In this document: positions 3,704 through 45,301 of the stretch, in pieces
Numbering within the stretch: position 1 is the stretch's first letter
Layout: each line of letters begins with the position of its first letter
NCBI GenBank assembly: GCA_049679945.1
Contig: JBAUGW010000063.1
Location: 272-64,271 of the forward strand
Direction of reading: 5' to 3'
DNA length: 64,000 nucleotides
Source: Pyrinomonadaceae bacterium
GTDB taxonomy: Bacteria > Acidobacteriota > Blastocatellia > Pyrinomonadales > Pyrinomonadaceae
Notes under the pieces: generated by a model
Seen by the model: only the letters and a program-made list of their open reading frames with translations
Database searches by the model: none
Told to the model about the DNA's origin: nothing
Made by a program: the position numbers and the translations under genes

Positions 3704-3789
3704 TGTGATAAAGATACCGTACCGATTTTTCGGATGCGTCGTGTTTACGTGAAAGTTGCATTGCGCCAAGATGTTCCTTTAAGACGCAG

Positions 3790-34897: not shown

Positions 34898-35415
34898 TAA
34901 ATTTCTTTCTGCATGAGCAGATCGGTTTGGGGATCAGAACCGAGTTGAAAAGTGTGCTTGCCGACGACACGGAAGCCATTTTTTTCATAAAACCGGTGTG
35001 CCCGCGGGTTGTATTCCCACACTCCAAGCCACATGACATCGCGATTCTCGACGCGTGCGCGCTCGAAACACGCATCCATCAAATCCTGCCCGACGCCTTT
35101 GCCGATATATTCCTGGTGCGAATAAAGCCGCGCTAACTCGACCGGCCGTTCCGCGGTGATGCCGGGCTCGATGTTGTCGATTACAATTTTTGCGTAGCCC
35201 GCCGCCTTTGCGTCGATCTCACCGATCAGAAAGATGTTCTTCTCATCGGCAAGCTCGGCCTCGATCTGTTCGAGACTAAACGCCTGCCGCATATAGTGAG
35301 CAAGATCGTCGGGCGCATTTTTAGGATGGTGTGCAAAAGCGTCCCAAAACGTCGTGTACGAAAGATCGGTCAGCAGTTTCGCATCGTCAACGGTTGCTTG
35401 GCGGATCGCGTTCAT
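34897..35415 (-). CDS. GNAT family N-acetyltransferase
   Basis: Acetyl-CoA binding motif QEYIGKGVGQDLM. The start overlaps the VapC stop (ATGA). Confidence 0.9.
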   Translation of the reverse strand: MNAIRQATVDDAKLLTDLSYTTFWDAFAHHPKNAPDDLAHYMRQAFSLEQIEAELADEKNIFLIGEIDAKAAGYAKIVIDNIEPGITAERPVELARLYSHQEYIGKGVGQDLMDACFERARVENRDVMWLGVWEYNPRAHRFYEKNGFRVVGKHTFQLGSDPQTDLLMQKEI

Positions 35416-35792
35416 AACAAAGCGACTCCGTAAGCGGCGAAATGTGGATCCGATGTAATAATCGGTATATTCTCAGCCAGCGCTTGTGCAATTATCAGTC
35501 GGTCGAATGGGTCTTTGCGATGAAATTGAAGTTCGGCGACCCGAATCAAATGTCTTGAATCGATTGGCAAGAGCGAGGTTGTTGATTCTTCTATTGCCCC
35601 AACAATATTATCTAAAGATGAGGATAATTTTAATTTATCGAGGCTTTGCTTGATGGCGATTTCCCAGAGACTGGCAAAGCTGACGAGAGGTTCATTATCG
35701 GGGTCGTCAATAAATGCGCTTCGTTCCAAGGTAAGTTGTGCATCGTCCTCAAAATGCCAAATTAGAACGTGCGTATCAATAAGGAATCGCAT
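35412..35792 (-). CDS. vapC: type II toxin-antitoxin system VapC family toxin (PIN domain)
   Basis: MRFLIDTHVLIW..., with conserved acidic residues and a DPFDRLIIAQA motif. Confidence 0.9.
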   Translation of the reverse strand: MRFLIDTHVLIWHFEDDAQLTLERSAFIDDPDNEPLVSFASLWEIAIKQSLDKLKLSSSLDNIVGAIEESTTSLLPIDSRHLIRVAELQFHRKDPFDRLIIAQALAENIPIITSDPHFAAYGVALL

Positions 35793-36001
35793 TACATGTA
35801 TTCATTAAAGTCGTCGAGCGGCGCATCAAAATCATCGGCGATGTAAAGCACCAAACCTTTCATGCAGCCGCGCTGCAGAGGCTGTTTCTTACTGCCGTTA
35901 CTGTTGGCCGGCTTTGAGATCTTGATCAACTTATCATTGGCCATCTCGTCAAGCATCTGCTCGGCTTTTGGTTCTAAAATTTCGACTTCGTACGTCAACA
36001 T
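35792..36001 (-). CDS. putative antitoxin (DUF2281-like)
   Basis: 69 aa. C-terminal DDFDAPLDDFNEYM is typical of this antitoxin type. 1-nt overlap (TAATG) with vapC. Confidence 0.7.
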   Translation of the reverse strand: MLTYEVEILEPKAEQMLDEMANDKLIKISKPANSNGSKKQPLQRGCMKGLVLYIADDFDAPLDDFNEYM

Positions 36002-36038
36002 AGAAGCGATTTTATCACAAGTTATTTAGTCAAATTGA

Positions 36039-37217
36039 CTATTTGCCGCTCGTAATCAGCTTTGCAATAGTTTGCAGCTGCATGTTCGACGTGCCTTCGT
36101 AGATGGAGCCGATCTTCGAATCGCGCCAGTATTTTTCGACCGGATAATCTTTGACGTAGCCGTAACCGCCGTAGAGTTCGATTGCTGTTGACGAAACGCG
36201 TTCGGCGCAGCGAGACGAAAAGAGTTTTGCGATGGCGGCTTCTTTCAAAAACGATTTTCCCGCGTCTTTTAGACGAGCGGCGTTGTATACGAGCAGTCGC
36301 GTCGCCTCGATCTCGACGGCCATCTCGGCGAGTTGGAATTGTACGGCCTGAAAACCGTTGAGCGCCGAGCCAAACTGCTCACGCTCAGCCGTGTATTTCA
36401 GAGCGGCTTCGTACGCGCCTTGCGCGATGCCGAGCATTTGTGCCGCGATACCGATACGGCCTTCGTTGAGAGTTTCGATCGAGACCTTGTAGCCTTTACC
36501 GATGTCACCGAGGACGTTTTCTTTCGGGACTTTGCAGTTATCGAGAATGAGTTCAGTTGTTGAAGAAGCTCGTATTCCGAGCTTGTCTTCTTTTTTGCCG
36601 ACGCTAAATCCTTCGAAACTTTTTTCCACGATGAACGCTGTGATGCCTTTGTAACCGGCTTCGGGATCGATGGTCGCAAAGACCAAAAAGATCTCGGCCT
36701 CGTTCCCGTTTGTGATCCAGAGCTTTTGACCGGTGAGTTCCCAAGTGTCGCCCTTATCGACCGCGCGTGTTTTTAACGCAAAAGCATCCGAGCCCGAACC
36801 GGCTTCGCTCAGCGCATACGCACCGACCTTACCGCTCGCCATTTGTGTCAGATACTTTTTCTTCTGATCGTCGTTTGCCCAACGCATAAACGCGTTTGTC
36901 ACGAGTGTGTTGTGAACATCGACAAAGACGGAAACTGAGGCATCGACGCGGGCCAGCTCTTCGATTGCGAGAATAGCGTTGAAGATCGTCGAGCCTGCGC
37001 CGCCATATTCCTCAGGCGACTCGATCGCCATCAAACCCAGATCAAAGCACTGTTTGATAAGGTCAGGGTCGAGTTTCGAGGCGTGCTCCATCTGCTCGAC
37101 CTTTGGGCGAACCTCGCCCTCGGCAAACTCGCGCACGGACGCGCGAAACATTTCTTCATCTTCGGATAAAACGGTCAGACCGGCGTTTGTCATAACGGTT
37201 CCTGTTGCTGTTGTCAT
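36039..37217 (-). CDS. acyl-CoA dehydrogenase (short/branched-chain type)
   Basis: 392 aa with ACAD N/M/C domains. The conserved C-terminus reads YEGTSNMQLQTIAK. Confidence 0.95.
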   Translation of the reverse strand: MTTATGTVMTNAGLTVLSEDEEMFRASVREFAEGEVRPKVEQMEHASKLDPDLIKQCFDLGLMAIESPEEYGGAGSTIFNAILAIEELARVDASVSVFVDVHNTLVTNAFMRWANDDQKKKYLTQMASGKVGAYALSEAGSGSDAFALKTRAVDKGDTWELTGQKLWITNGNEAEIFLVFATIDPEAGYKGITAFIVEKSFEGFSVGKKEDKLGIRASSTTELILDNCKVPKENVLGDIGKGYKVSIETLNEGRIGIAAQMLGIAQGAYEAALKYTAEREQFGSALNGFQAVQFQLAEMAVEIEATRLLVYNAARLKDAGKSFLKEAAIAKLFSSRCAERVSSTAIELYGGYGYVKDYPVEKYWRDSKIGSIYEGTSNMQLQTIAKLITSGK

Positions 37218-37243
37218 AAAGTAAACTGAGTGTCAGTAGTATC

Positions 37244-37319
37244 GTGTCCGTAGCCCCCACGTAAGTAAGGGCTATCGTGGCTCCACAGGAGCCCTTACTT
37301 ACGTGCGGGCTACAGACAC
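37244..37319. repeat. 30-bp-stem hairpin in a divergent promoter region
   Basis: GTGTCCGTAGCCCCCACGTAAGTAAGGGCT (37244-37273) against the reverse complement of 37290-37319 is 28/30. 16-nt loop. Confidence 0.8.
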
Positions 37320-37357
37320 TACATTTTAGACAGCATATCGGCATAAGGCAACGTAAA

Positions 37358-38410
37358 GTGAATCCACCAATCGACCCCGCAGACACGCATTCTCGAAAAT
37401 ACAGCAGGCTGAAGTTGCTGGCCGTTTTGCTGACGCTTTTGGGGATTGGGTTGTTCGGGTATTTTATCTACGCCGTCGGTTTTAGTGAGATCGTCGATGG
37501 CGTTGTGCGATTTGGTGTCGCGGGTTTTGCAGTAATTCTTGTGCTTTACTTTCTGCGACTCATCACGCGAGCGCAGACGTGGAAGATGTGCGTTCACGAG
37601 CCCGACGAATTGCGATTGCGAGATACTGTTCCCGCCGTCATCATCGGCGAGGCATTGAGCAGCACAATACCGCTCGGCATCCTTGTAAGCGGCACGTCGA
37701 AGGCGATCGCTGTGAGAAAAAAAATTTCGCTCGTCGCGGGCCTTTCGTCCGTCGCCACCGAAAATCTTTTTTACAGCTTAATCACGAGTTTGTTTTTGAT
37801 CGCAGGTGCGGCGGTGATGCTGCGAACTTACGCGGTTGACGAGAGTTTGATCGTGACGGTAAATATTCTCATCGTCTCCGTCGCGCTCCTGCTGCTGCTG
37901 GGAATTTTCATGGTCGTGCGTCAGTGGCATTTTGCGAGCGTGACCTGCAACTGGCTTTTCGAAAAAGGTTTTCTGACGCGGCTGCTCGAAAACGGGCGTG
38001 GCGAAGTGCGTCGATTCGAGGATTTTATTTACGGCTTTTATCGAAAGTATCCGCGACGCTTTTTGCCGATTTGTTTTTTCGAGTTTATTTATCACGTGCT
38101 CGGCATCGCCGAAGTTTGGTACATCCTCAGCCGCATCACTGACGGCTCGCCCAGTTTGCTCACCGCATTTTTACTCGAATCAGTCAGCCGGCTCGTAACA
38201 ATAATTTTCAAACTCGTGCCTTTTGTGATCGGCGTTGACGAGGCGGGCGCGCAGTTCGTTGGCGAAACGGTCGCACTTGGTGCCGGTGTCGCCGTCACGC
38301 TCGCGATCATCCGCAAAGGGCGGATCCTGTTCTGGACCGCGATCGGTGTCGTGCTAATTATCAAGCGTGGTTTCTCAATAAAAGAAATTTCCGCCGCGCT
38401 CGATGAATAA
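37358..38410 (+). CDS. lysylphosphatidylglycerol-synthase-TM-region (UPF0104/flippase-like) family membrane protein
   Basis: About 350 aa and multi-TM. GTG at 37358 is preferred because the track's ATG at 37277 lies inside the hairpin. The family call comes from overall topology and the C-terminal motif, so it is moderate. Confidence 0.6.
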   Translation: MNPPIDPADTHSRKYSRLKLLAVLLTLLGIGLFGYFIYAVGFSEIVDGVVRFGVAGFAVILVLYFLRLITRAQTWKMCVHEPDELRLRDTVPAVIIGEALSSTIPLGILVSGTSKAIAVRKKISLVAGLSSVATENLFYSLITSLFLIAGAAVMLRTYAVDESLIVTVNILIVSVALLLLLGIFMVVRQWHFASVTCNWLFEKGFLTRLLENGRGEVRRFEDFIYGFYRKYPRRFLPICFFEFIYHVLGIAEVWYILSRITDGSPSLLTAFLLESVSRLVTIIFKLVPFVIGVDEAGAQFVGETVALGAGVAVTLAIIRKGRILFWTAIGVVLIIKRGFSIKEISAALDE

Positions 38411-38415
38411 AAAAA

Positions 38416-38438
38416 GGCGGCTCAAAATCCGAGCCGCC
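38416..38438. terminator. bidirectional hairpin terminator
   Basis: GGCGGCTC-AAAATCC-GAGCCGCC flanked by an A-run and then AAAGG, between convergent genes. Confidence 0.6.
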
Positions 38439-38475
38439 AAAGGGGACGTTACCGTCGAAAACATCTAATCAAATG

Positions 38476-39714
38476 TTACGGAACATCGGGACTCCCGATT
38501 GGAATATCGCCGTTGGCGCCCCAAGGGAACGAGAAGAAAGAGTTATTGCTGCTTCGCAGCACAAAGTAATTGCCGTTGGCAGGCCGCCAGAACGCGATGT
38601 CGGTCTTGCCGTCTTTGTCGAAGTCCCCGGGTTGCGGTTTGTCACCTGTTTGTCCAAACTGTGAAGCACTAATTGAGCCGTTGGAACTCTTTTGTATCCA
38701 CCACTCACCTACACTCGGTCGGAAAATAGCTACATCCGCTCGTTTGTCGCCATCAAAATCACCTTCGACAGGAACATCTCCGGCGATTCCGAAGGGAACG
38801 CTATCTACGGTATTGCTGCCCGTGTTCAAAACAAAGAAAACTCCGGCGGAGGGACGAAAAACTGCGGGGTCTTTGAACCCATCACCATCGAAATCACCTT
38901 CGTGAAATTGTGCGGCACGCGGCTCGCCGTAGATAAAGTCATCCATTGCGACGACATCAACGCCGCTCACACCGTCATTATTAGTTGATGAAAGCGCGGC
39001 ATTGCCGCTTTCGATCACGACCCGTGCAATGCGTTCGCCCGCGTTAAAGGAAATGCCGACAAACGACAATCCGTTGTCAAGAACCGGCGCGGAGGCGGCG
39101 GAAAGCTGCCTGCCGTCAACGCCATAAACGCGAATTAGTGAGCGACCGCCGCCTGTAGAGGAATCAACATCGCAAAAGACGACGCCGAAACCGCTGACGG
39201 TTGCCGGAATATTCGTGCCGGGAACGAGGAAATTTACTTCCAAAATGTGTGCGTTTCGCACCGTAAACAGACGTTGTGCGCTGAAGGTTGTAAAAATCGT
39301 CGAATAACTCGCATTGATACTACCGAAACGCACCGGCACACCCGAAGCCGTAGTTGAACTGACGGCAAAATCGTTCAAAGCCGCACCCGTTTCGTCTTCG
39401 ATAGCATTAAAGATAACTCCGCGCGGACTATTGACATTAAAAAAGTCCTCGGGCAAATTGTTCGGTTCGGAAAAGCCGTCCGGCACGCCGTCCCAGTTGA
39501 TTTCGCGTCTGCCCGAGATGAACGAACCGCCGACACCGTTATTTGCGCCGCCCAAATCTGCGCGGAACTGGTCAACGATTGCCTGAAGTGCCGCCGCGTT
39601 TGCGCCTGACCCTTGTCTGACAACTGGCGCGGCCGGTGCGATGTTCGTGATAAACAAAATCGCCACTAACGTGGAGGCAACGTTTCTGATAGTTCTAACA
39701 TTAAAGTTCTTCAT
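38476..39714 (-). CDS. secreted FG-GAP/VCBS repeat protein
   Basis: Signal peptide. Repeated GDFDGDGxxDxAxFRP motif in four copies at the C-terminus. Confidence 0.8.
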   Translation of the reverse strand: MKNFNVRTIRNVASTLVAILFITNIAPAAPVVRQGSGANAAALQAIVDQFRADLGGANNGVGGSFISGRREINWDGVPDGFSEPNNLPEDFFNVNSPRGVIFNAIEDETGAALNDFAVSSTTASGVPVRFGSINASYSTIFTTFSAQRLFTVRNAHILEVNFLVPGTNIPATVSGFGVVFCDVDSSTGGGRSLIRVYGVDGRQLSAASAPVLDNGLSFVGISFNAGERIARVVIESGNAALSSTNNDGVSGVDVVAMDDFIYGEPRAAQFHEGDFDGDGFKDPAVFRPSAGVFFVLNTGSNTVDSVPFGIAGDVPVEGDFDGDKRADVAIFRPSVGEWWIQKSSNGSISASQFGQTGDKPQPGDFDKDGKTDIAFWRPANGNYFVLRSSNNSFFSFPWGANGDIPIGSPDVP

Positions 39715-39894
39715 AGTTTTATTCTCGATTCTTTTTTGTTTTTATACTTCTTTAGTAGTTGTGACGCTCCCAAACGCGGCTAAGAGTTTATGGCGCAATG
39801 AAGAACCAGCGCCTACGTGATAGTTTAACGCAGCCTATCAACTATACAGAGTCGCAGATGCCCATCTTCAACCGCCCACTGCAGTTGGCGTATC

Positions 39895-40062
39895 ATCACA
39901 ATTCTCTTCAAACTCGTGCCGTTCGTCATCGGCGCCGGTGTCGCCGTCACGCTCGCGATAATACGCAAAGGGCGAATTCTGTTCTGGACCGCGATCGGCG
40001 TGATCCTAATTATCAAGCGCGGCCTTTCGATAAAAGAAATTTCCGCCGCCTTCGATGCATAG
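39895..40062 (+). pseudogene. orphan 3'-end fragment homologous to 38201-38410
   Basis: Hand alignment: the last 128 nt are 111/128 identical to 38283-38410. It lacks 48 nt (16 codons) relative to the intact gene, stays in frame and ends in TAG. No upstream body of the gene is present. Confidence 0.8.
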
Positions 40063-40143
40063 ATAGCAACTCAATTAGAAACTCACAAATCATGCCTCGA
40101 TAGCAGCTATTTTGCGTGATAGACTAAAAATAAATAAAACAAT

Positions 40144-41682
40144 ATGAACAGGCTTCGAAAACTAGTATTTTTTCTATTAATTGTTCCTACTTTTCTTCAA
40201 GCGCAGACGTTCGACGAAAAGCTCAAAGAGATCGACGATTACGGAAACACGGTCATGCAGACGTGGAAAGGCCCGGGCATGGCAATCGCGGTCATCAAAG
40301 ACGACAAGGTCGTGTTTCAGAAAGGCTATGGCACACGCGAGCTTGGCAAAGAGGCGCCGGTCGACAAAGACACACTTTTCGCTATTGCATCGAACTCAAA
40401 AGCGTTCACAACCGCGAGCCTCGCGATTCTCGTCGACGAAAAAAAGCTGGCGTGGGACGACAAAGTGTCGAAGTATCTGCCCGATTTTCAGATGTACGAT
40501 CCGTGGGTGACGAGCGAGTTGACGGTTCGCGATCTCGTGACGCATCGAGTTGGGCTCGATACGTTCAGCGGCGACCTGCTGTGGTATGAGACGACGTATT
40601 CCGCGGATGAGATTTTGCGACGCACGCGGCATCTCAAGCCGGTTTCGAGTTTTCGCACTCGGTACGGTTATCAAAATCTGATGTTCATTGCAGCCGGCAA
40701 GGTCGTTGAGAAGATTTCAGGTAAGTCGTGGTGCGAATTTGTGACGGCGCGAATCCTAACACCGCTCGCAATGACGCGAACAACCTGCAGCGTAAACAAT
40801 CTGCCCGACGGCAACGCCGCGTGGCCGCATAACGAGTCGGGCGGCGCGCTGCGGCGTCTTCATCGCGGCAACGTCGATGGTTCGTCGTCCGCCGCGGCCC
40901 TCAATTCATCCGTCGCCGATCTTTCAAAGTGGGTGAGAACGCAATTGGGACGCGGTAAATTTGAGGGCAAACAGATTTTTAGCGAGGCGCAAAGCTGGCA
41001 AATGCACCAGCAATGGCTAGCGCAACAAGTTGGCCCGTCAAACACGCCGGGCATACAACCGCGGCATTTTAGCGGCGTCGGTATGGGCTGGTTTGTTTAC
41101 GATTATATGGGGCGCAAGATTATAAATCACAGCGGCGGCCTCGACGGTATGTTGTCCTACACGGTGCTGATTCCTGAGGAGAACGCGGGTTTTGTTGTGC
41201 TCACGAATAACGAGTCGCCGTCGTTTGCGGTTATGACGAGCAAGATTCGCGATGTGCTCGTCGGCGCGCCCAAACGCGACTACAACGACGAAGCAGTCAA
41301 ACGCATCGCCGATAATAAAAAATCGGACGCCGACGCGGCAAAAAAGGTCGACGACGCGCGCGTTGTGAACACGAAGCCGTCACTCGTTCTGAGCAGCTAC
41401 GCGGGAACGTACTCGGACAAAATGTACGGCGACGTTACCGTCGCAGAAGAAAACGGCAAGCCCGTGATGCGCTTTTCTCCCTCGCCAAATTTCGTCGCCG
41501 ATCTCGAACACTGGCATTACGACACGTTCGTCATCAAATGGCGACCGTCGGTCGCGTACAACTTTCCCCGAGGTTTTGTTACGTTCACCATCGACAAAGA
41601 CGGTAAGACCGACGTGCTAAAAGTTGATCAGCCAAACAACGACTTTTGGTTCTACGAGCTTGATCTGCATCGAGTGAAATAG
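40144..41682 (+). CDS. serine hydrolase, beta-lactamase (class C/PBP4-like) family
   Basis: Signal peptide. SxxK motif IASNSKAF. A C-terminal extra beta domain, as in many such hydrolases. Confidence 0.9.
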   Translation: MNRLRKLVFFLLIVPTFLQAQTFDEKLKEIDDYGNTVMQTWKGPGMAIAVIKDDKVVFQKGYGTRELGKEAPVDKDTLFAIASNSKAFTTASLAILVDEKKLAWDDKVSKYLPDFQMYDPWVTSELTVRDLVTHRVGLDTFSGDLLWYETTYSADEILRRTRHLKPVSSFRTRYGYQNLMFIAAGKVVEKISGKSWCEFVTARILTPLAMTRTTCSVNNLPDGNAAWPHNESGGALRRLHRGNVDGSSSAAALNSSVADLSKWVRTQLGRGKFEGKQIFSEAQSWQMHQQWLAQQVGPSNTPGIQPRHFSGVGMGWFVYDYMGRKIINHSGGLDGMLSYTVLIPEENAGFVVLTNNESPSFAVMTSKIRDVLVGAPKRDYNDEAVKRIADNKKSDADAAKKVDDARVVNTKPSLVLSSYAGTYSDKMYGDVTVAEENGKPVMRFSPSPNFVADLEHWHYDTFVIKWRPSVAYNFPRGFVTFTIDKDGKTDVLKVDQPNNDFWFYELDLHRVK

Positions 41683-41748
41683 ACAAAATGTGAGTTGTTG
41701 TGTCAGAATTTCGTTTCTGCAATTTTGTTTAGGAGATTATTGTTTTAG

Positions 41749-41949
41749 ATGTCAGAAGAAACAGCACCGGCCGCTGAGGCCACGCCCGAGCAGAGCGCGA
41801 GCAATGAGGACATGCATTATCAGGCGGTCGAAAAAGAAGGCGTCGTAACGGCGATCTGGGAAATGCAGGGCCAAAAGCACATTCGCACCATCGACCCGCG
41901 TTCGGCCGAGGGCAAACAGATACTCGCTCTTTTCGAAACCGCGGGTTAA
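41749..41949 (+). CDS. small acidic hypothetical protein
   Basis: 66-aa ORF followed by a strong terminator. No motif recognised. Confidence 0.5.
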   Translation: MSEETAPAAEATPEQSASNEDMHYQAVEKEGVVTAIWEMQGQKHIRTIDPRSAEGKQILALFETAG

Positions 41950-41960
41950 GAAAAGATTTA

Positions 41961-42015
41961 GCCACGAATCGACACGAATGTTCACGAATGAAGTTCGTGA
42001 GTGTTCGTGTTTTTT
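41961..42015 (+). terminator. CACGAAT-class hairpin with T-run (intrinsic terminator)
   Basis: ACACGAATGTTCACGAA-TGAAG-TTCGTGAGTGTTCGTGT forms a 17-bp stem that includes three G-U pairs, followed by TTTTTT. Confidence 0.7.
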
Positions 42016-42760
42016 AGTTTCGCAAGTATTTCAATATCTCATGCGATGATTCGAGGAGATCGCGACCGTCAAAACGTGACGCTTCGACGATCCCGATACC
42101 AGCAGACGTTAGGAATATCGCAGCGGCGCTGTCGAGCTCATTGATCGCAACTTCGACCTCTTCGCAGTCGATGTTTTCCAAAACAAACTCACGTGTCGTT
42201 CCCGCGAGACAGCCAGTCGATAAAGCCGGCGTGATAAGTTTATCGCCTTTAAGCCAGAAAATATTTGCCATCGACGCGCTTGTGATGTGACTTCGCTCGT
42301 TTAAACGAACGGCCTCGTGAAAGCCGCGACTCTTGGCTTCGTCGAGCGCCAAGATGTTTTCGAGATAGTTGCACGACTTCACGCCGGCGAGCGGCGAGCT
42401 TGAATTTACCTGATAAGGCGAGACGGTTAGCCTGAACGGCTGCGGCACAACGCGGCGTTCGGCGACGATGATCGACAATTCTGTTTTACTCTCAACATCG
42501 CCCGGCCACATTTTGCTTGGGCTATCATCGAGAAAAGTTATTCGAGCGCGTCCGTCTGCGATGCCGCTCGTCGCAATCGATCTTTCGAGAGCGTCACGTG
42601 TTGATCGTTCGGTATGCCCGGCGAGATCTACGCCGACCCTCGTGGCATTGTCTGTCAGCCGCCGCCAATGTTTTTCCCACAGAAACGCTTTGCCGCTGCT
42701 AAAAGCAATCGTGGAAAAGATACCTTTACCGTATAACGAGGCGTTCGATGTTTGCATCAT
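42014..42760 (-). CDS. class IV aminotransferase family protein (aminodeoxychorismate lyase-like)
   Basis: 248 aa, fold-type IV PLP enzyme layout. Confidence 0.8.
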   Translation of the reverse strand: MMQTSNASLYGKGIFSTIAFSSGKAFLWEKHWRRLTDNATRVGVDLAGHTERSTRDALERSIATSGIADGRARITFLDDSPSKMWPGDVESKTELSIIVAERRVVPQPFRLTVSPYQVNSSSPLAGVKSCNYLENILALDEAKSRGFHEAVRLNERSHITSASMANIFWLKGDKLITPALSTGCLAGTTREFVLENIDCEEVEVAINELDSAAAIFLTSAGIGIVEASRFDGRDLLESSHEILKYLRN

Positions 42761-43758
42761 GCCTCGATTTTTGCGAAATCGGCGTCGCGTTTGCTCAATT
42801 TGCTTTTCTTATCGTGACAAAACTCGCTGACGATCTCGCAAAACAATTTGCTGCACTCTTCATGCGGAACATGGCCGCAATTTTTTAGAACGACGAGACG
42901 AGCGTGCAAGATCGCGTCGTGAAGCTTGTGACCGTCCGATGCGGGAATTACGGCATCGTCTTCGCCCCAGATGACTAGAGTTGGATGATTGATGAGATGC
43001 GCGTCGTGCTCGATGCGATTTGCGTTCCAGTTGCGCGACGTGGCGAGCAGACTGTGATGACCGTCGGCCGCGTGTAGAGGACGGCGGATCGAATCGATAC
43101 GTTCCTCGGTTACCATGTGACGATTTGCCCGAGCAAATGTGCCGTTCATGCGGTAACGCATGAATGTTTTTGAGTCTGAGAGAAATGGCGTGATGACTTC
43201 GCCGACGCCGGGGATCGAAGCGAGTTTGAGTATTGGATGCGATTGCAGATCGTCATTAATAACTGCATCGACGAGAACGAGCTTCTCGACTCGTTCGGGA
43301 TAATCGAGCGTGAGCGTTGCCGCAATCGCGCCGCCATACGAACTGCCGACAACGATGGCGCGCCCCAAACCGAGGCGATCCATAAATCGCTCGATCATGC
43401 GCGTCTGAGCAGTTATCGAATATTCAAACCAACGCGGTTTATCCGTATAACCAAAACCGACGAGATCGACCGCGAGCACGCGAAACCCCGCCTTTGCGAG
43501 CAGCGGCGCCGCCGTTTTCCAAACATAAACGGACGCCGTGTAGCCGTGGATCAGGATCATCGGCGGATCCGCGGCATTGCCAAACTCCTGATAATGAACG
43601 CGAATGCCGTCGACGCTGATAAATCGCGAGCGATTGGCGTGAATGACACGATCGGCGACGTCGTCGAAATTCACCGTCGCGGCGCGCGTTAGCATCTTGA
43701 CGGCTACCGCCGCACCGGCTGCACCGACAAATGCGATGGCGAGGTTGCGCTTTTTCAT
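42757..43758 (-). CDS. alpha/beta hydrolase
   Basis: HG oxyanion motif LIHGYTAS, nucleophile elbow GSSYGG, and a membrane-anchor-like N-terminus from ATG 43758. Confidence 0.9.
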   Translation of the reverse strand: MKKRNLAIAFVGAAGAAVAVKMLTRAATVNFDDVADRVIHANRSRFISVDGIRVHYQEFGNAADPPMILIHGYTASVYVWKTAAPLLAKAGFRVLAVDLVGFGYTDKPRWFEYSITAQTRMIERFMDRLGLGRAIVVGSSYGGAIAATLTLDYPERVEKLVLVDAVINDDLQSHPILKLASIPGVGEVITPFLSDSKTFMRYRMNGTFARANRHMVTEERIDSIRRPLHAADGHHSLLATSRNWNANRIEHDAHLINHPTLVIWGEDDAVIPASDGHKLHDAILHARLVVLKNCGHVPHEECSKLFCEIVSEFCHDKKSKLSKRDADFAKIEA

Positions 43759-43811
43759 AAACGGTCCGGGCTTCGCCCTCATTGCGGACAAGAGTGCCCG
43801 CGTTCCTGATT

Positions 43812-44711
43812 TTATACCAAAACGATCTTCGGACGAATAGATTTTTCCTCCGCGTCGTAGAATCCGACGGCGATCAGATTTTGCTTTTCGTCCACCATAC
43901 TCACCGCTTCATTGTCAGCAAACTGCGCTTCGTGCACCCGCGTAGAAAGCCCGCTCTTTGTTTTCTCAACTCGCGTCGCGTCTAAAATTATCGACGGCAG
44001 ATGCCCGACGGCGATTTCTTTTGGTAAAAGAGCGGTTGACGGATCGGCGTGCTGCTCTAATTCGTCGAGCGTCGCGCTTTGTGATAAATCGAAACATCCC
44101 GCTCGCGTGCGACGCAGTTCTGCGAGATGGGCGCCGACACCGATAGCTCGGCCAATATTTTCAGCGAGCGTGCGGATGTATGTTCCCGCAGAACACGCCA
44201 CTCGAAGCCCCATGTCCAAAGTCCCGAGTTCCAAGGTTTCAGTTAATTCACTTGTGATCTCAAGTTTAGAAATCGTGACTGTCACAGCTTTACGTTCGAT
44301 CTCGATACCTTTGCGGGCATGTTCATACAGCTTTTTCCCCGCGACCTTTTTCGCCGAAAACATCGGCGGAACCTGCTCGATCACTCCGAGAAACTGCGGC
44401 AAAACGCCAACTACATCATCCTCCGTTATCTGACTTTGCCTTTTTACTTTTTCCTTTTGGCTTCCGGTGCGATCACCGGTATCTGTCTCAAAACCAAACC
44501 GCACAACAGCTTCATACTCTTTTTCGTCTTTGTCGAGAAACTGCGCGAGTCGAGTTGCCTTACCAACAACCACGACCATCACGCCGGTCGCAAACGGATC
44601 GAGCGTTCCGGTGTGGCCGACACGGCGGGTTTGCAAGATTCGCCGTACGCGATTTACAACATCGTGCGATGTTATTCCCGCGGGCTTATCGATTATGAGT
44701 ATGCCGTCCAT
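43812..44711 (-). CDS. truB: tRNA pseudouridine(55) synthase
   Basis: GILIIDKPAGITSHDVV...GHTGTLDPFATG catalytic Asp motif. Confidence 0.95.
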   Translation of the reverse strand: MDGILIIDKPAGITSHDVVNRVRRILQTRRVGHTGTLDPFATGVMVVVVGKATRLAQFLDKDEKEYEAVVRFGFETDTGDRTGSQKEKVKRQSQITEDDVVGVLPQFLGVIEQVPPMFSAKKVAGKKLYEHARKGIEIERKAVTVTISKLEITSELTETLELGTLDMGLRVACSAGTYIRTLAENIGRAIGVGAHLAELRRTRAGCFDLSQSATLDELEQHADPSTALLPKEIAVGHLPSIILDATRVEKTKSGLSTRVHEAQFADNEAVSMVDEKQNLIAVGFYDAEEKSIRPKIVLV

Positions 44712-44755
44712 CGACTAATTTTAGAATGGGCTGGTGCATAATGCACAATTGAAAC

Positions 44756-45301
44756 GTGGCGTGGCAAAAACGAGTCAGAAAGATCGAAGAAAGTGATCGG
44801 GTTGTGAACGACGAAGTTCGTTCACGCGAGCGCACCATGAACCGCGCAGTTAAGTTGCTCGCCGCAAAGCCGCGTTCGGTCACAGAGCTGCGCGAACGCC
44901 TTCTTGAAAAGCTATGGACAAACGAGCAAATTGTTGACGCTGTCATCGAAAAGCTAAAAGAATACAAATACCTCGACGACGAGCAGTTTGCACGCGATCT
45001 TGCGCTCTCAAAACTGCGTCAAAAGCCGCAAGGGAAACGAAAGTTGCAGCAAACGATGTCGCAGAAAAAGCTTGATAAATCAGTCGTTGACGACGCGATC
45101 ACAGAAGCTTTTGAAAAGATGCCCGAGGCCGATTTGATAAATAGCGCTATCGAAAAACGCCTACGTCTCAAGGGCGAGCCAACAACACGCGAAGACACAA
45201 AAAAATTCTACGACCATCTTCTACGGCAGGGATTCTCTTACGACTTGATACGCGAAAAGCTGTCTGCAATAGCGAGCGGTCGATTCGAACATGATGAATA
45301 G
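44756..45301 (+). CDS. recX: recombination regulator RecX
   Basis: A three-repeat helical protein. AVKLLAAKPRSVTELRERLLEK is typical. GTG start. Confidence 0.85.
   Translation: MAWQKRVRKIEESDRVVNDEVRSRERTMNRAVKLLAAKPRSVTELRERLLEKLWTNEQIVDAVIEKLKEYKYLDDEQFARDLALSKLRQKPQGKRKLQQTMSQKKLDKSVVDDAITEAFEKMPEADLINSAIEKRLRLKGEPTTREDTKKFYDHLLRQGFSYDLIREKLSAIASGRFEHDE

Follow-up and report, generated by a model that had tools for sequence, protein, structure and literature searches.

Displaced end of a membrane-protein gene beside an FG-GAP gene in a Pyrinomonadaceae genome: a very probable scar of recombination between two haplotypes with one illegitimate end

We analysed a 64-kb stretch of DNA (hereafter, the window) from a Pyrinomonadaceae bacterium (assembly GCA_049679945.1, contig JBAUGW010000063.1), in which the 3′ end of a membrane-protein gene recurs downstream of the intact gene, on the far side of a gene for a secreted FG-GAP/VCBS-repeat protein. 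An earlier sequence-only reading of this DNA had taken the arrangement for a scar of recombination or horizontal gene transfer. All coordinates are window positions; G denotes the intact 3′ end of the membrane gene, R the downstream remnant, and L-numbers denote related loci. The comparison covers 94 such loci, all from Pyrinomonadaceae metagenome-assembled genomes, and consists of a tblastn survey of 80 genome loci together with contexts fetched for close protein matches. The membrane gene (37358–38410), for which 1544 homologues were found, is preceded by an acyl-CoA dehydrogenase gene (ACAD, by Pfam), and a spacer of 81 nucleotides (nt) separates the stop codon of R from a beta-lactamase-family gene (BLAC). 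The features of the locus are as follows.

37358..38410, plus strand: membrane-protein gene, LPG_synthase_TM/flippase-like, 350 amino acids (aa) (Pfam PF03706, E 1.3e-13).
38187..38410, plus strand: copy G, the functional 3′ end, comprising the last ~74 codons and a TAA stop; groups with the FG-GAP-bearing loci L082/L083.
38235..38282, plus strand: 48-nt segment of 16 codons, VDEAGAQFVGETVALG, present in G and in every orthologue examined and missing from R (alignment).
38416..38438, minus strand: GC-rich hairpin with a T-run behind it on the minus strand, acting as intrinsic terminator for the FG-GAP gene; collinear with type-B loci (defined below).
38476..39714, minus strand: FG-GAP/VCBS-repeat secreted protein gene, 412 aa, the sole cargo between the two copies (Pfam PF13517/PF01839).
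39751..39886, unstranded: filler, or FG-GAP upstream DNA, of ~136 nt between the FG-GAP promoter-proximal region and R; matches only the conspecific loci L081/L084.
39887..40062, plus strand: copy R, the stranded 3′ end of a membrane gene with a TAG stop, lacking the 16 codons and any upstream coding sequence.
40144..41682, plus strand: beta-lactamase-family/DUF3471 gene, the conserved right-hand neighbour (Pfam PF00144, E 1e-66).

R repeats G in the same orientation, ~1.7 kb further downstream. A repeat search recovered them as two segments, 38268–38409 against 39920–40061 (142 nt, 85% identity) and 38193–38234 against 39893–39934 (42 nt, 81%), and alignment with MAFFT placed a single clean, in-frame gap of 48 nt in R, opposite 38235–38282. 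In register with the orthologues, the homology starts at ~38187 in G and at ~39887 in R, and 148 of 176 aligned nt match (P about 5e-50 under random matching with p = 0.30). R remains in frame and has no internal stop codon. The sequence-only reading had already reported the recurrence, the loss of exactly 48 nt and 17 differences over the final 128 nt; we obtained the same gap, the same count and precisely the translation that it had given, and corrected only the left edge of R, which it had put at 39895. By the Nei–Gojobori method, 17.5 synonymous differences fall on 43.2 synonymous sites and 6.5 non-synonymous differences on 118.8 non-synonymous sites, a ratio of non-synonymous to synonymous divergence (dN/dS) of ~0.10 (Fisher P for synonymous bias = 1e-7). 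This signature of purifying selection indicates that G and R accumulated their differences while each belonged to a working gene.

The bases carried by R lead to the same view, which the earlier reading also held. G and R differ at 25 sites, and at all but four of these the base of R was seen in at least one intact orthologue (L091, L090, L094 or L021). One of the four R-only sites, 40058, is private to the window strain, since L081 and L084 keep the ancestral GAA there. The full-length L090 protein (P0005), which ends ...KRGLSIKEISAAFDK, agrees with R at 40 of 41 residues. Because nearly all bases specific to R also occur in intact orthologues, we regard it as a displaced allele end and not as a decayed local duplicate. 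R is what remains of an allele that was once normal and functional and falls just outside the cluster of G, L021 and L083, and it became stranded recently. Its synonymous bias is inherited history, not a sign of present selection. The sole clear lesion that followed the stranding and is common to three strains is the 48-nt deletion, which is flanked by the imperfect repeat TCGGCG/TTGGTG and removed the conserved VDEAGAQFVGETVALG. A degenerate 29-mer search for the junction left by the 16-codon deletion gave no match in metagenome contigs. Neither translation of R (55 aa and 48 aa) has a Pfam match; unlike the intact gene, R neither matches the PF03706 profile nor holds a full-length transmembrane domain.

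Two gene orders were found in the relatives. In type A the dehydrogenase gene is followed by the membrane gene and directly thereafter by the beta-lactamase gene, an arrangement that the earlier reading had proposed to look for and that is present in L021 and L091–L093 as well as in the more distant L016, L019, L025 and L061. L021 is the closest relative of the window (ACAD 99%, BLAC 95% aa identity). In type B the membrane gene is followed by a convergent FG-GAP gene, an open reading frame (ORF) of ~106 aa, a DUF7948/SBBP gene, a gene for a Trans_reg_C-hydrolase regulator and then the beta-lactamase gene. This order is complete in L090 and partial on the short contigs L082 and L083, the latter with its ORF107 neighbour, and L001 shows similar spacing. 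Through the dehydrogenase gene and the 5′ half of the membrane gene, the type-A locus L021 and the type-B locus L082 share 96–100% identity, which shows that both gene orders segregate in one species-level population. Overall, the interval between the membrane gene and the beta-lactamase gene is variable in content, ranging from 0 to ~8 kb. In each of the 80 genome loci tblastn gave one match to the membrane gene and one to the remnant peptide, the latter being the end of the locus's own gene; two full-length paralogues, the arrangement named beforehand as speaking against a recombination scar, were seen in none. The remnant of a deleted tandem paralogue is rejected as a reading, as no relative among these loci carries two copies. 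L082, L083, L090, L091 and L094 lack the remnant.

The FG-GAP gene normally lies within a conserved four-gene set (L090 3771–10372; also L086 and L087), which occupies different chromosomal sites in different Pyrinomonadaceae. The set consists of the FG-GAP gene, an ORF of ~100–107 aa starting MAPH..REIVIEFEKVQMIRKRAR, a gene for a DUF7948/SBBP protein of ~960 aa and one for a regulator with Trans_reg_C and alpha/beta-hydrolase domains. The window keeps the FG-GAP gene only, and tblastn found no remains of the type-B ORF106/107 in it. At the same interval, L094 has lost the beta-lactamase gene except for its last ~63 nt, which stand directly after the membrane-gene stop codon (L094 3726–3788, equivalent to window 41621–41683), a second deletion scar at this hotspot and one that arose independently.

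The window joins the two gene orders. It is 95–100% identical to L083 in nt over a stretch that begins at ~38245 and includes the stop codon, the hairpin terminator and the FG-GAP gene's 3′ half. G matches L083 at 40 of 40 and 123 of 128 nt, and the informative sites are L083-like in nine of ten cases at 38245–38368 and in all cases at 38410–38470. Identity of the FG-GAP gene to L083 declines from 95–100% at its 3′ end to ~70% at the variable 5′ signal-peptide end, and weak type-B homology runs on past the start codon, the ribosome-binding site and a T-rich tract to ~39750. The terminator that had been noted between the copies is indeed present; it belongs to the minus-strand FG-GAP gene, with its T-tail on the minus strand. 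On the right, the window is collinear with type-A loci, with L021 from 39929 (94% nt identity) and with L091 from 39931 (91%), over most of R, the TAG stop, the spacer and the beta-lactamase gene. Homology to membrane-gene alleles begins abruptly at ~39887 and type-B homology ends at ~39750, with unmatched DNA between them. These limits show that one side of the event was homologous and that the other was closed by a non-homologous joint near 39886/39887. The filler at 39751–39886 matched only the conspecific L081 and L084 by BLAST against all 94 loci, had no exact 24-mer match in metagenome contigs and no other copy in the window, and contained no Rfam family above noise and no promoter-like site.

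L081 and L084, which are assemblies of two other samples, carry the same R with the same deletion and are 99.3–99.5% identical to the window over 37.1–40.9 kb. The structure is therefore real and not an assembly artefact. The scar was found in none of the 88 other loci and is confined to the window clade (three assemblies). These sister strains differ from the window by 0.5–0.7%, as against 16% between the two copies, indicating that the event is recent relative to the divergence of the copies. L084, 99.3% identical elsewhere, leaves collinearity with the window after its position 3773 (window 40868), in the middle of the beta-lactamase gene, which is truncated there to 326 aa; the DNA beyond is absent from the 64-kb window and reflects either a further rearrangement or chimerism at the end of the contig. 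This break is preceded by densely clustered single-nucleotide polymorphisms at 40621–40725.

Two copies in one orientation and 1.7 kb apart could also stem from a tandem duplication confined to a single genome, whose downstream copy then decayed without any recombination between genomes. We consider this origin extremely unlikely, as it does not account for 16% divergence at a dN/dS of 0.10 in an event that the small distance between sister strains marks as recent, and local decay cannot yield R-specific bases that are alleles of intact genes elsewhere. Moreover, G and R join two different conserved contexts, one of type B and the other of type A.

It might also be supposed that R is alive. 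It is in frame, has its stop codon at the end and no internal stop, and contains a 48-codon ORF (39916–40062, GTG start), which in a weaker form of this idea may be expressed as a small membrane peptide. That R is functional in either way, as such a peptide or as one arm of a reversible loss of the FG-GAP gene, seems to us extremely improbable: R lacks an ATG, a recognisable promoter and any Pfam signal, its past in a full-length gene fully accounts for its synonymous bias, and the conserved 16-residue core of the family is lost. The sole polymorphism among the three strains is non-synonymous, and the deleted form was found nowhere else. The arm function deserves separate mention, as a crossover within the 128-nt segment would excise the FG-GAP gene and rebuild an intact, chimeric membrane gene with an R-type C-terminus, much as for icd and icdC (see below). 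If true, the scar would not be dead debris but a lasting switch that turns a secreted FG-GAP protein on or off. Efficient RecA recombination has a usual minimal length of identity, however, and the longest stretches over which G and R agree without a mismatch (25, 20 and 20 nt, all in the 128-nt segment downstream of the deletion) lie at or below it. That the gene forms such a reversible cassette is, in our judgement, very improbable.

Based on the homology limits with their single joint, and on the collinearity with both gene orders, we suggest that a type-B-like and a type-A-like chromosome recombined with one illegitimate end, and that the locus is very probably the scar of this inter-haplotype event, in whichever direction it ran. 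Two haplotypes of different gene order would co-circulate and would usually be interconverted by homologous crossovers in both flanking genes. In the ancestor of this strain, recombination would have been homologous on one side only, the other side being closed by an illegitimate joint at ~39886/39887 that links FG-GAP upstream DNA to a point ~74 codons before the stop of a second allele. The product keeps an intact membrane gene with end G, a terminator and an FG-GAP gene of type-B ancestry, together with a promoter-less R of the other allele that stays attached to the type-A spacer and beta-lactamase gene. R later lost 48 nt between the short imperfect repeats and is now a pseudogene fragment. 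The combination of one homologous and one illegitimate crossover put forward in the sequence-only reading was thus largely right, with the joint at ~39886/39887 and with an L082/L083-like segment that holds an intact gene end and the FG-GAP gene. That reading also took the native 3′ end to have been replaced; it was rather displaced.

For the molecular route we infer one of two possibilities: a linear fragment may have entered by homology-facilitated illegitimate recombination (HFIR), or a circularised fragment of ~1.7 kb may have integrated by a single crossover, a route that the earlier reading did not consider. HFIR is described for bacteria capable of natural transformation (de Vries & Wackernagel 2002; Prudhomme et al. 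2002; Meier & Wackernagel 2003, as cited in PMC5361080), and its classical outcome is insertion-deletions. The window shares with HFIR a border in sequence homologous to the partner (an anchor on the membrane-gene or beta-lactamase side), a non-homologous joint at the other border, and a segment of ~1.5 kb, without counterpart in the partner haplotype, trapped beside the anchor. It differs in that ~220 nt of the anchor region were duplicated and not deleted, if the FG-GAP gene was gained, and in that the partners are close relatives and not foreign DNA. In experiments with Escherichia coli, integration through one-sided homology most commonly left a duplication of 109–950 bp flanking the insert, explained by single crossover of a circularised fragment (PMC3240628). 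The direct repeats of ~176–224 nt around the insert resemble that Campbell-type outcome; the repeats here are, however, 16% diverged, no clear reciprocal hybrid junction is seen within them, and the circle is only proposed. The flanking duplication fits either a single crossover of such a circle or an HFIR joint falling within the anchor.

The membrane gene itself is a mosaic: it is L021/L083-like to 37807, contains a window-specific divergent block at 37808–38107 (63–83% identity to L021/L083 in 60-nt windows), is L021-like at 38108–38173 (14 of 15 informative sites at 38101–38173) and L083-like from 38245. The tract at 38108–39060 that resembles L021 and L083 sits between the divergent block and R. 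In R no switch matches the one in G between 38173 and 38245, and the whole region is finely mosaic. Over 35400–45300 identity to L021 alternates between blocks of 99–100% and of 65–80%, each of 100–500 nt (low-identity blocks include 37808–38107, 41954–42173, 42399–42698 and 44049–44573), which indicates very frequent short-tract homologous recombination among related lineages. Given this alternation, later recombination has probably overwritten the original breakpoints. A search for the direction of transfer using informative sites to the left of G and to the right of R gave no answer, as both flanks are too mosaic for a clean tract end.

The first possible direction is a gain, in which a type-A recipient with R as its native end would have received, from a donor of type B, the end of the gene, the terminator and the FG-GAP gene with the region upstream of it. 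We give this roughly an even chance, and our lean towards it is slight. It stems from the fact that the interval in which G switches from L021-like to L083-like holds the left edge of the repeat (38187), and from the observation that the divergent block and R order nine close relatives alike (L094 > L090 > L091 > L001 > L021 > L083/L082).

The mirror direction, which we hold to be possible though rather doubtful, would start from a full type-B ancestor that received a type-A gene end, spacer and beta-lactamase gene. Recombination would then have been homologous on the right and illegitimate upstream of the FG-GAP gene, with loss of ~5.4 kb of the cluster (three genes) and deposition of R; this form of the event would carry the insertion-deletion feature of HFIR. 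A full type-B cluster does exist at this site in L090, L083 has its ORF107 neighbour, and G, the terminator and the FG-GAP gene would simply be native, matching the unbroken collinearity with L082/L083. Type-A strains with R-like alleles (L091–L093) share a sample series with the scar-bearing L081 and L084, and the first 65 nt of R are mostly L091-like. Against such a truncation, R is only 90% identical to L091, the imported tract has no visible clean right-hand end, the incoming fragment must have ignored ~220 nt of homology with G, and on its left as on its right the window most resembles the type-A L021.

Several observations weigh against recombination with one illegitimate end in the form proposed here, or against its details. 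The collections searched contain no parental sequence for the filler, in which the short microhomology (3–10 nt) expected at an HFIR joint would be seen, and R is at most 88–90% identical to any sampled allele. Neither R nor G shows a clear hybrid switch of the kind that a single crossover in mid-repeat would leave. Every model needs at least one extra mosaic boundary, as G is L021-like to 38173 and L083-like from 38245, and a small L021-like patch lies within G at 38383–38407. On the right, short L021-like, L091-like and private stretches alternate finely, and no clean tract end is seen. The agreement between the block and R in ordering the relatives comes from nine of them and from small differences, and over all 85 loci the correlation is not significant (rho 0.12, P = 0.26). 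Finally, gain and truncation give the same product, and the data do not fix the direction. The earlier proposal that the incoming segment brought both the FG-GAP gene and the gene end therefore stands as to the hybrid of types A and B, and not as to its direction.

The description of the segment as foreign was overstated. Both partners are haplotypes from a single population at species level that recombines intensively, and FG-GAP genes are common in the family, with thousands of Pyrinomonadaceae homologues. The closest non-self match to the FG-GAP protein in a set of 5.8 billion proteins is the L082 orthologue that adjoins the membrane gene (88% aa identity), and no closer donor was found in that set. 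Copies at 82% stand in other genomic contexts, beside the same cluster partners. The comparison of composition with the neighbouring genes, which had been suggested as a check, gave no foreign signal: the GC content of the FG-GAP gene is 0.51–0.55 against 0.50–0.55 in its neighbours.

These results bear also on site-specific integration of a small mobile element that brought a replacement 3′ end and decayed to one cargo gene. Its topology would be that of the E. coli K-12 icd locus, in which the e14 prophage replaced the 3′ end of icd and the icdC pseudogene lies beyond the inserted DNA (PMC13626634), and the interval between the membrane gene and the beta-lactamase gene is a hotspot of 0 to ~8 kb. 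Yet no integrase, recombinase or transposase is encoded in the 1.5-kb interval or among the neighbouring genes, which are housekeeping genes. The insert is ordinary chromosomal DNA, without compositional anomaly and collinear with type-B genomes, where no remnant flanks the same segment, and the lack of a second gene end in all 88 other loci shows no recurrent occupation. We therefore judge a mobile element to be a very unlikely source. The likeness to icd, e14 and icdC lies in a displaced, mostly synonymously diverged end beyond the insert, and in the possibility that recombination of the two ends could drop the insert and make a chimera. e14, in contrast, is a 15-kb prophage with a site-specific integrase and an att site, while here one chromosomal gene without a recombinase is found in a single lineage.

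Orphan 3′ ends are also known from Rhs, contact-dependent inhibition of growth (CDI) and type VI secretion system (T6SS) effector loci, where they arise through sequential displacement and HFIR has been proposed (PMC5361080). There, as here, an incoming module with its own gene end shifts the resident 3′ end downstream. In the window, by contrast, toxin-immunity logic, an array and a variable C-terminal domain are all absent, there is no selective reason to keep the orphan, and the two ends encode nearly the same peptide. The scar is of a known kind, comparable to icd/icdC and to Rhs/T6SS orphan ends, and it reveals no new mechanism or gene family.

Other variable features lie near the locus. 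A PIN-domain toxin gene and a small antitoxin-like ORF (35412–36001) stand between an acetyltransferase gene and the dehydrogenase gene, and are also present in L094. In L082, L091 and L092 their position is taken by a gene for a DUF6036 protein and a 117-aa ORF, which points to a variable cassette. The intergenic region between the dehydrogenase gene and the membrane gene holds a near-perfect palindrome of ~100 nt (37231–37332; RNA minimum free energy −58 kcal/mol, z −8.4), where L021 and L082 have other sequence. Its core, CCCTTACTTACGTG, occurs at the same spot in L001 and L017 and at a different spot in L056, and Rfam gave only a spurious sub-threshold match to a microRNA. It looks like a dispersed hairpin element of the Pyrinomonadaceae, resembling repetitive extragenic palindromes (REP) or miniature inverted-repeat transposable elements (MITE). 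Further to the right, an insertion of ~3 kb relative to L021 (45264–48225, between recX and a gene for a fasciclin-domain protein) carries a 181-aa ORF without Pfam match and a gene for an SPFH/Band 7 protein of 732 aa; no integrase was seen in it.

For annotation, our findings mean that 39887–40062 is best labelled a pseudogene fragment and that the 48-aa ORF within it should not be listed as a gene. For the biology of these bacteria, the locus is a natural case, in uncultured soil Acidobacteriota, of recombination with one homologous and one illegitimate end, with representatives of both parental haplotype types still present among the samples of the same population. It suggests that the presence or absence of accessory genes at a hotspot between two core genes is occasionally resolved aberrantly, and that such accidents leave datable scars, in the form of a displaced gene end with almost no private mutations.

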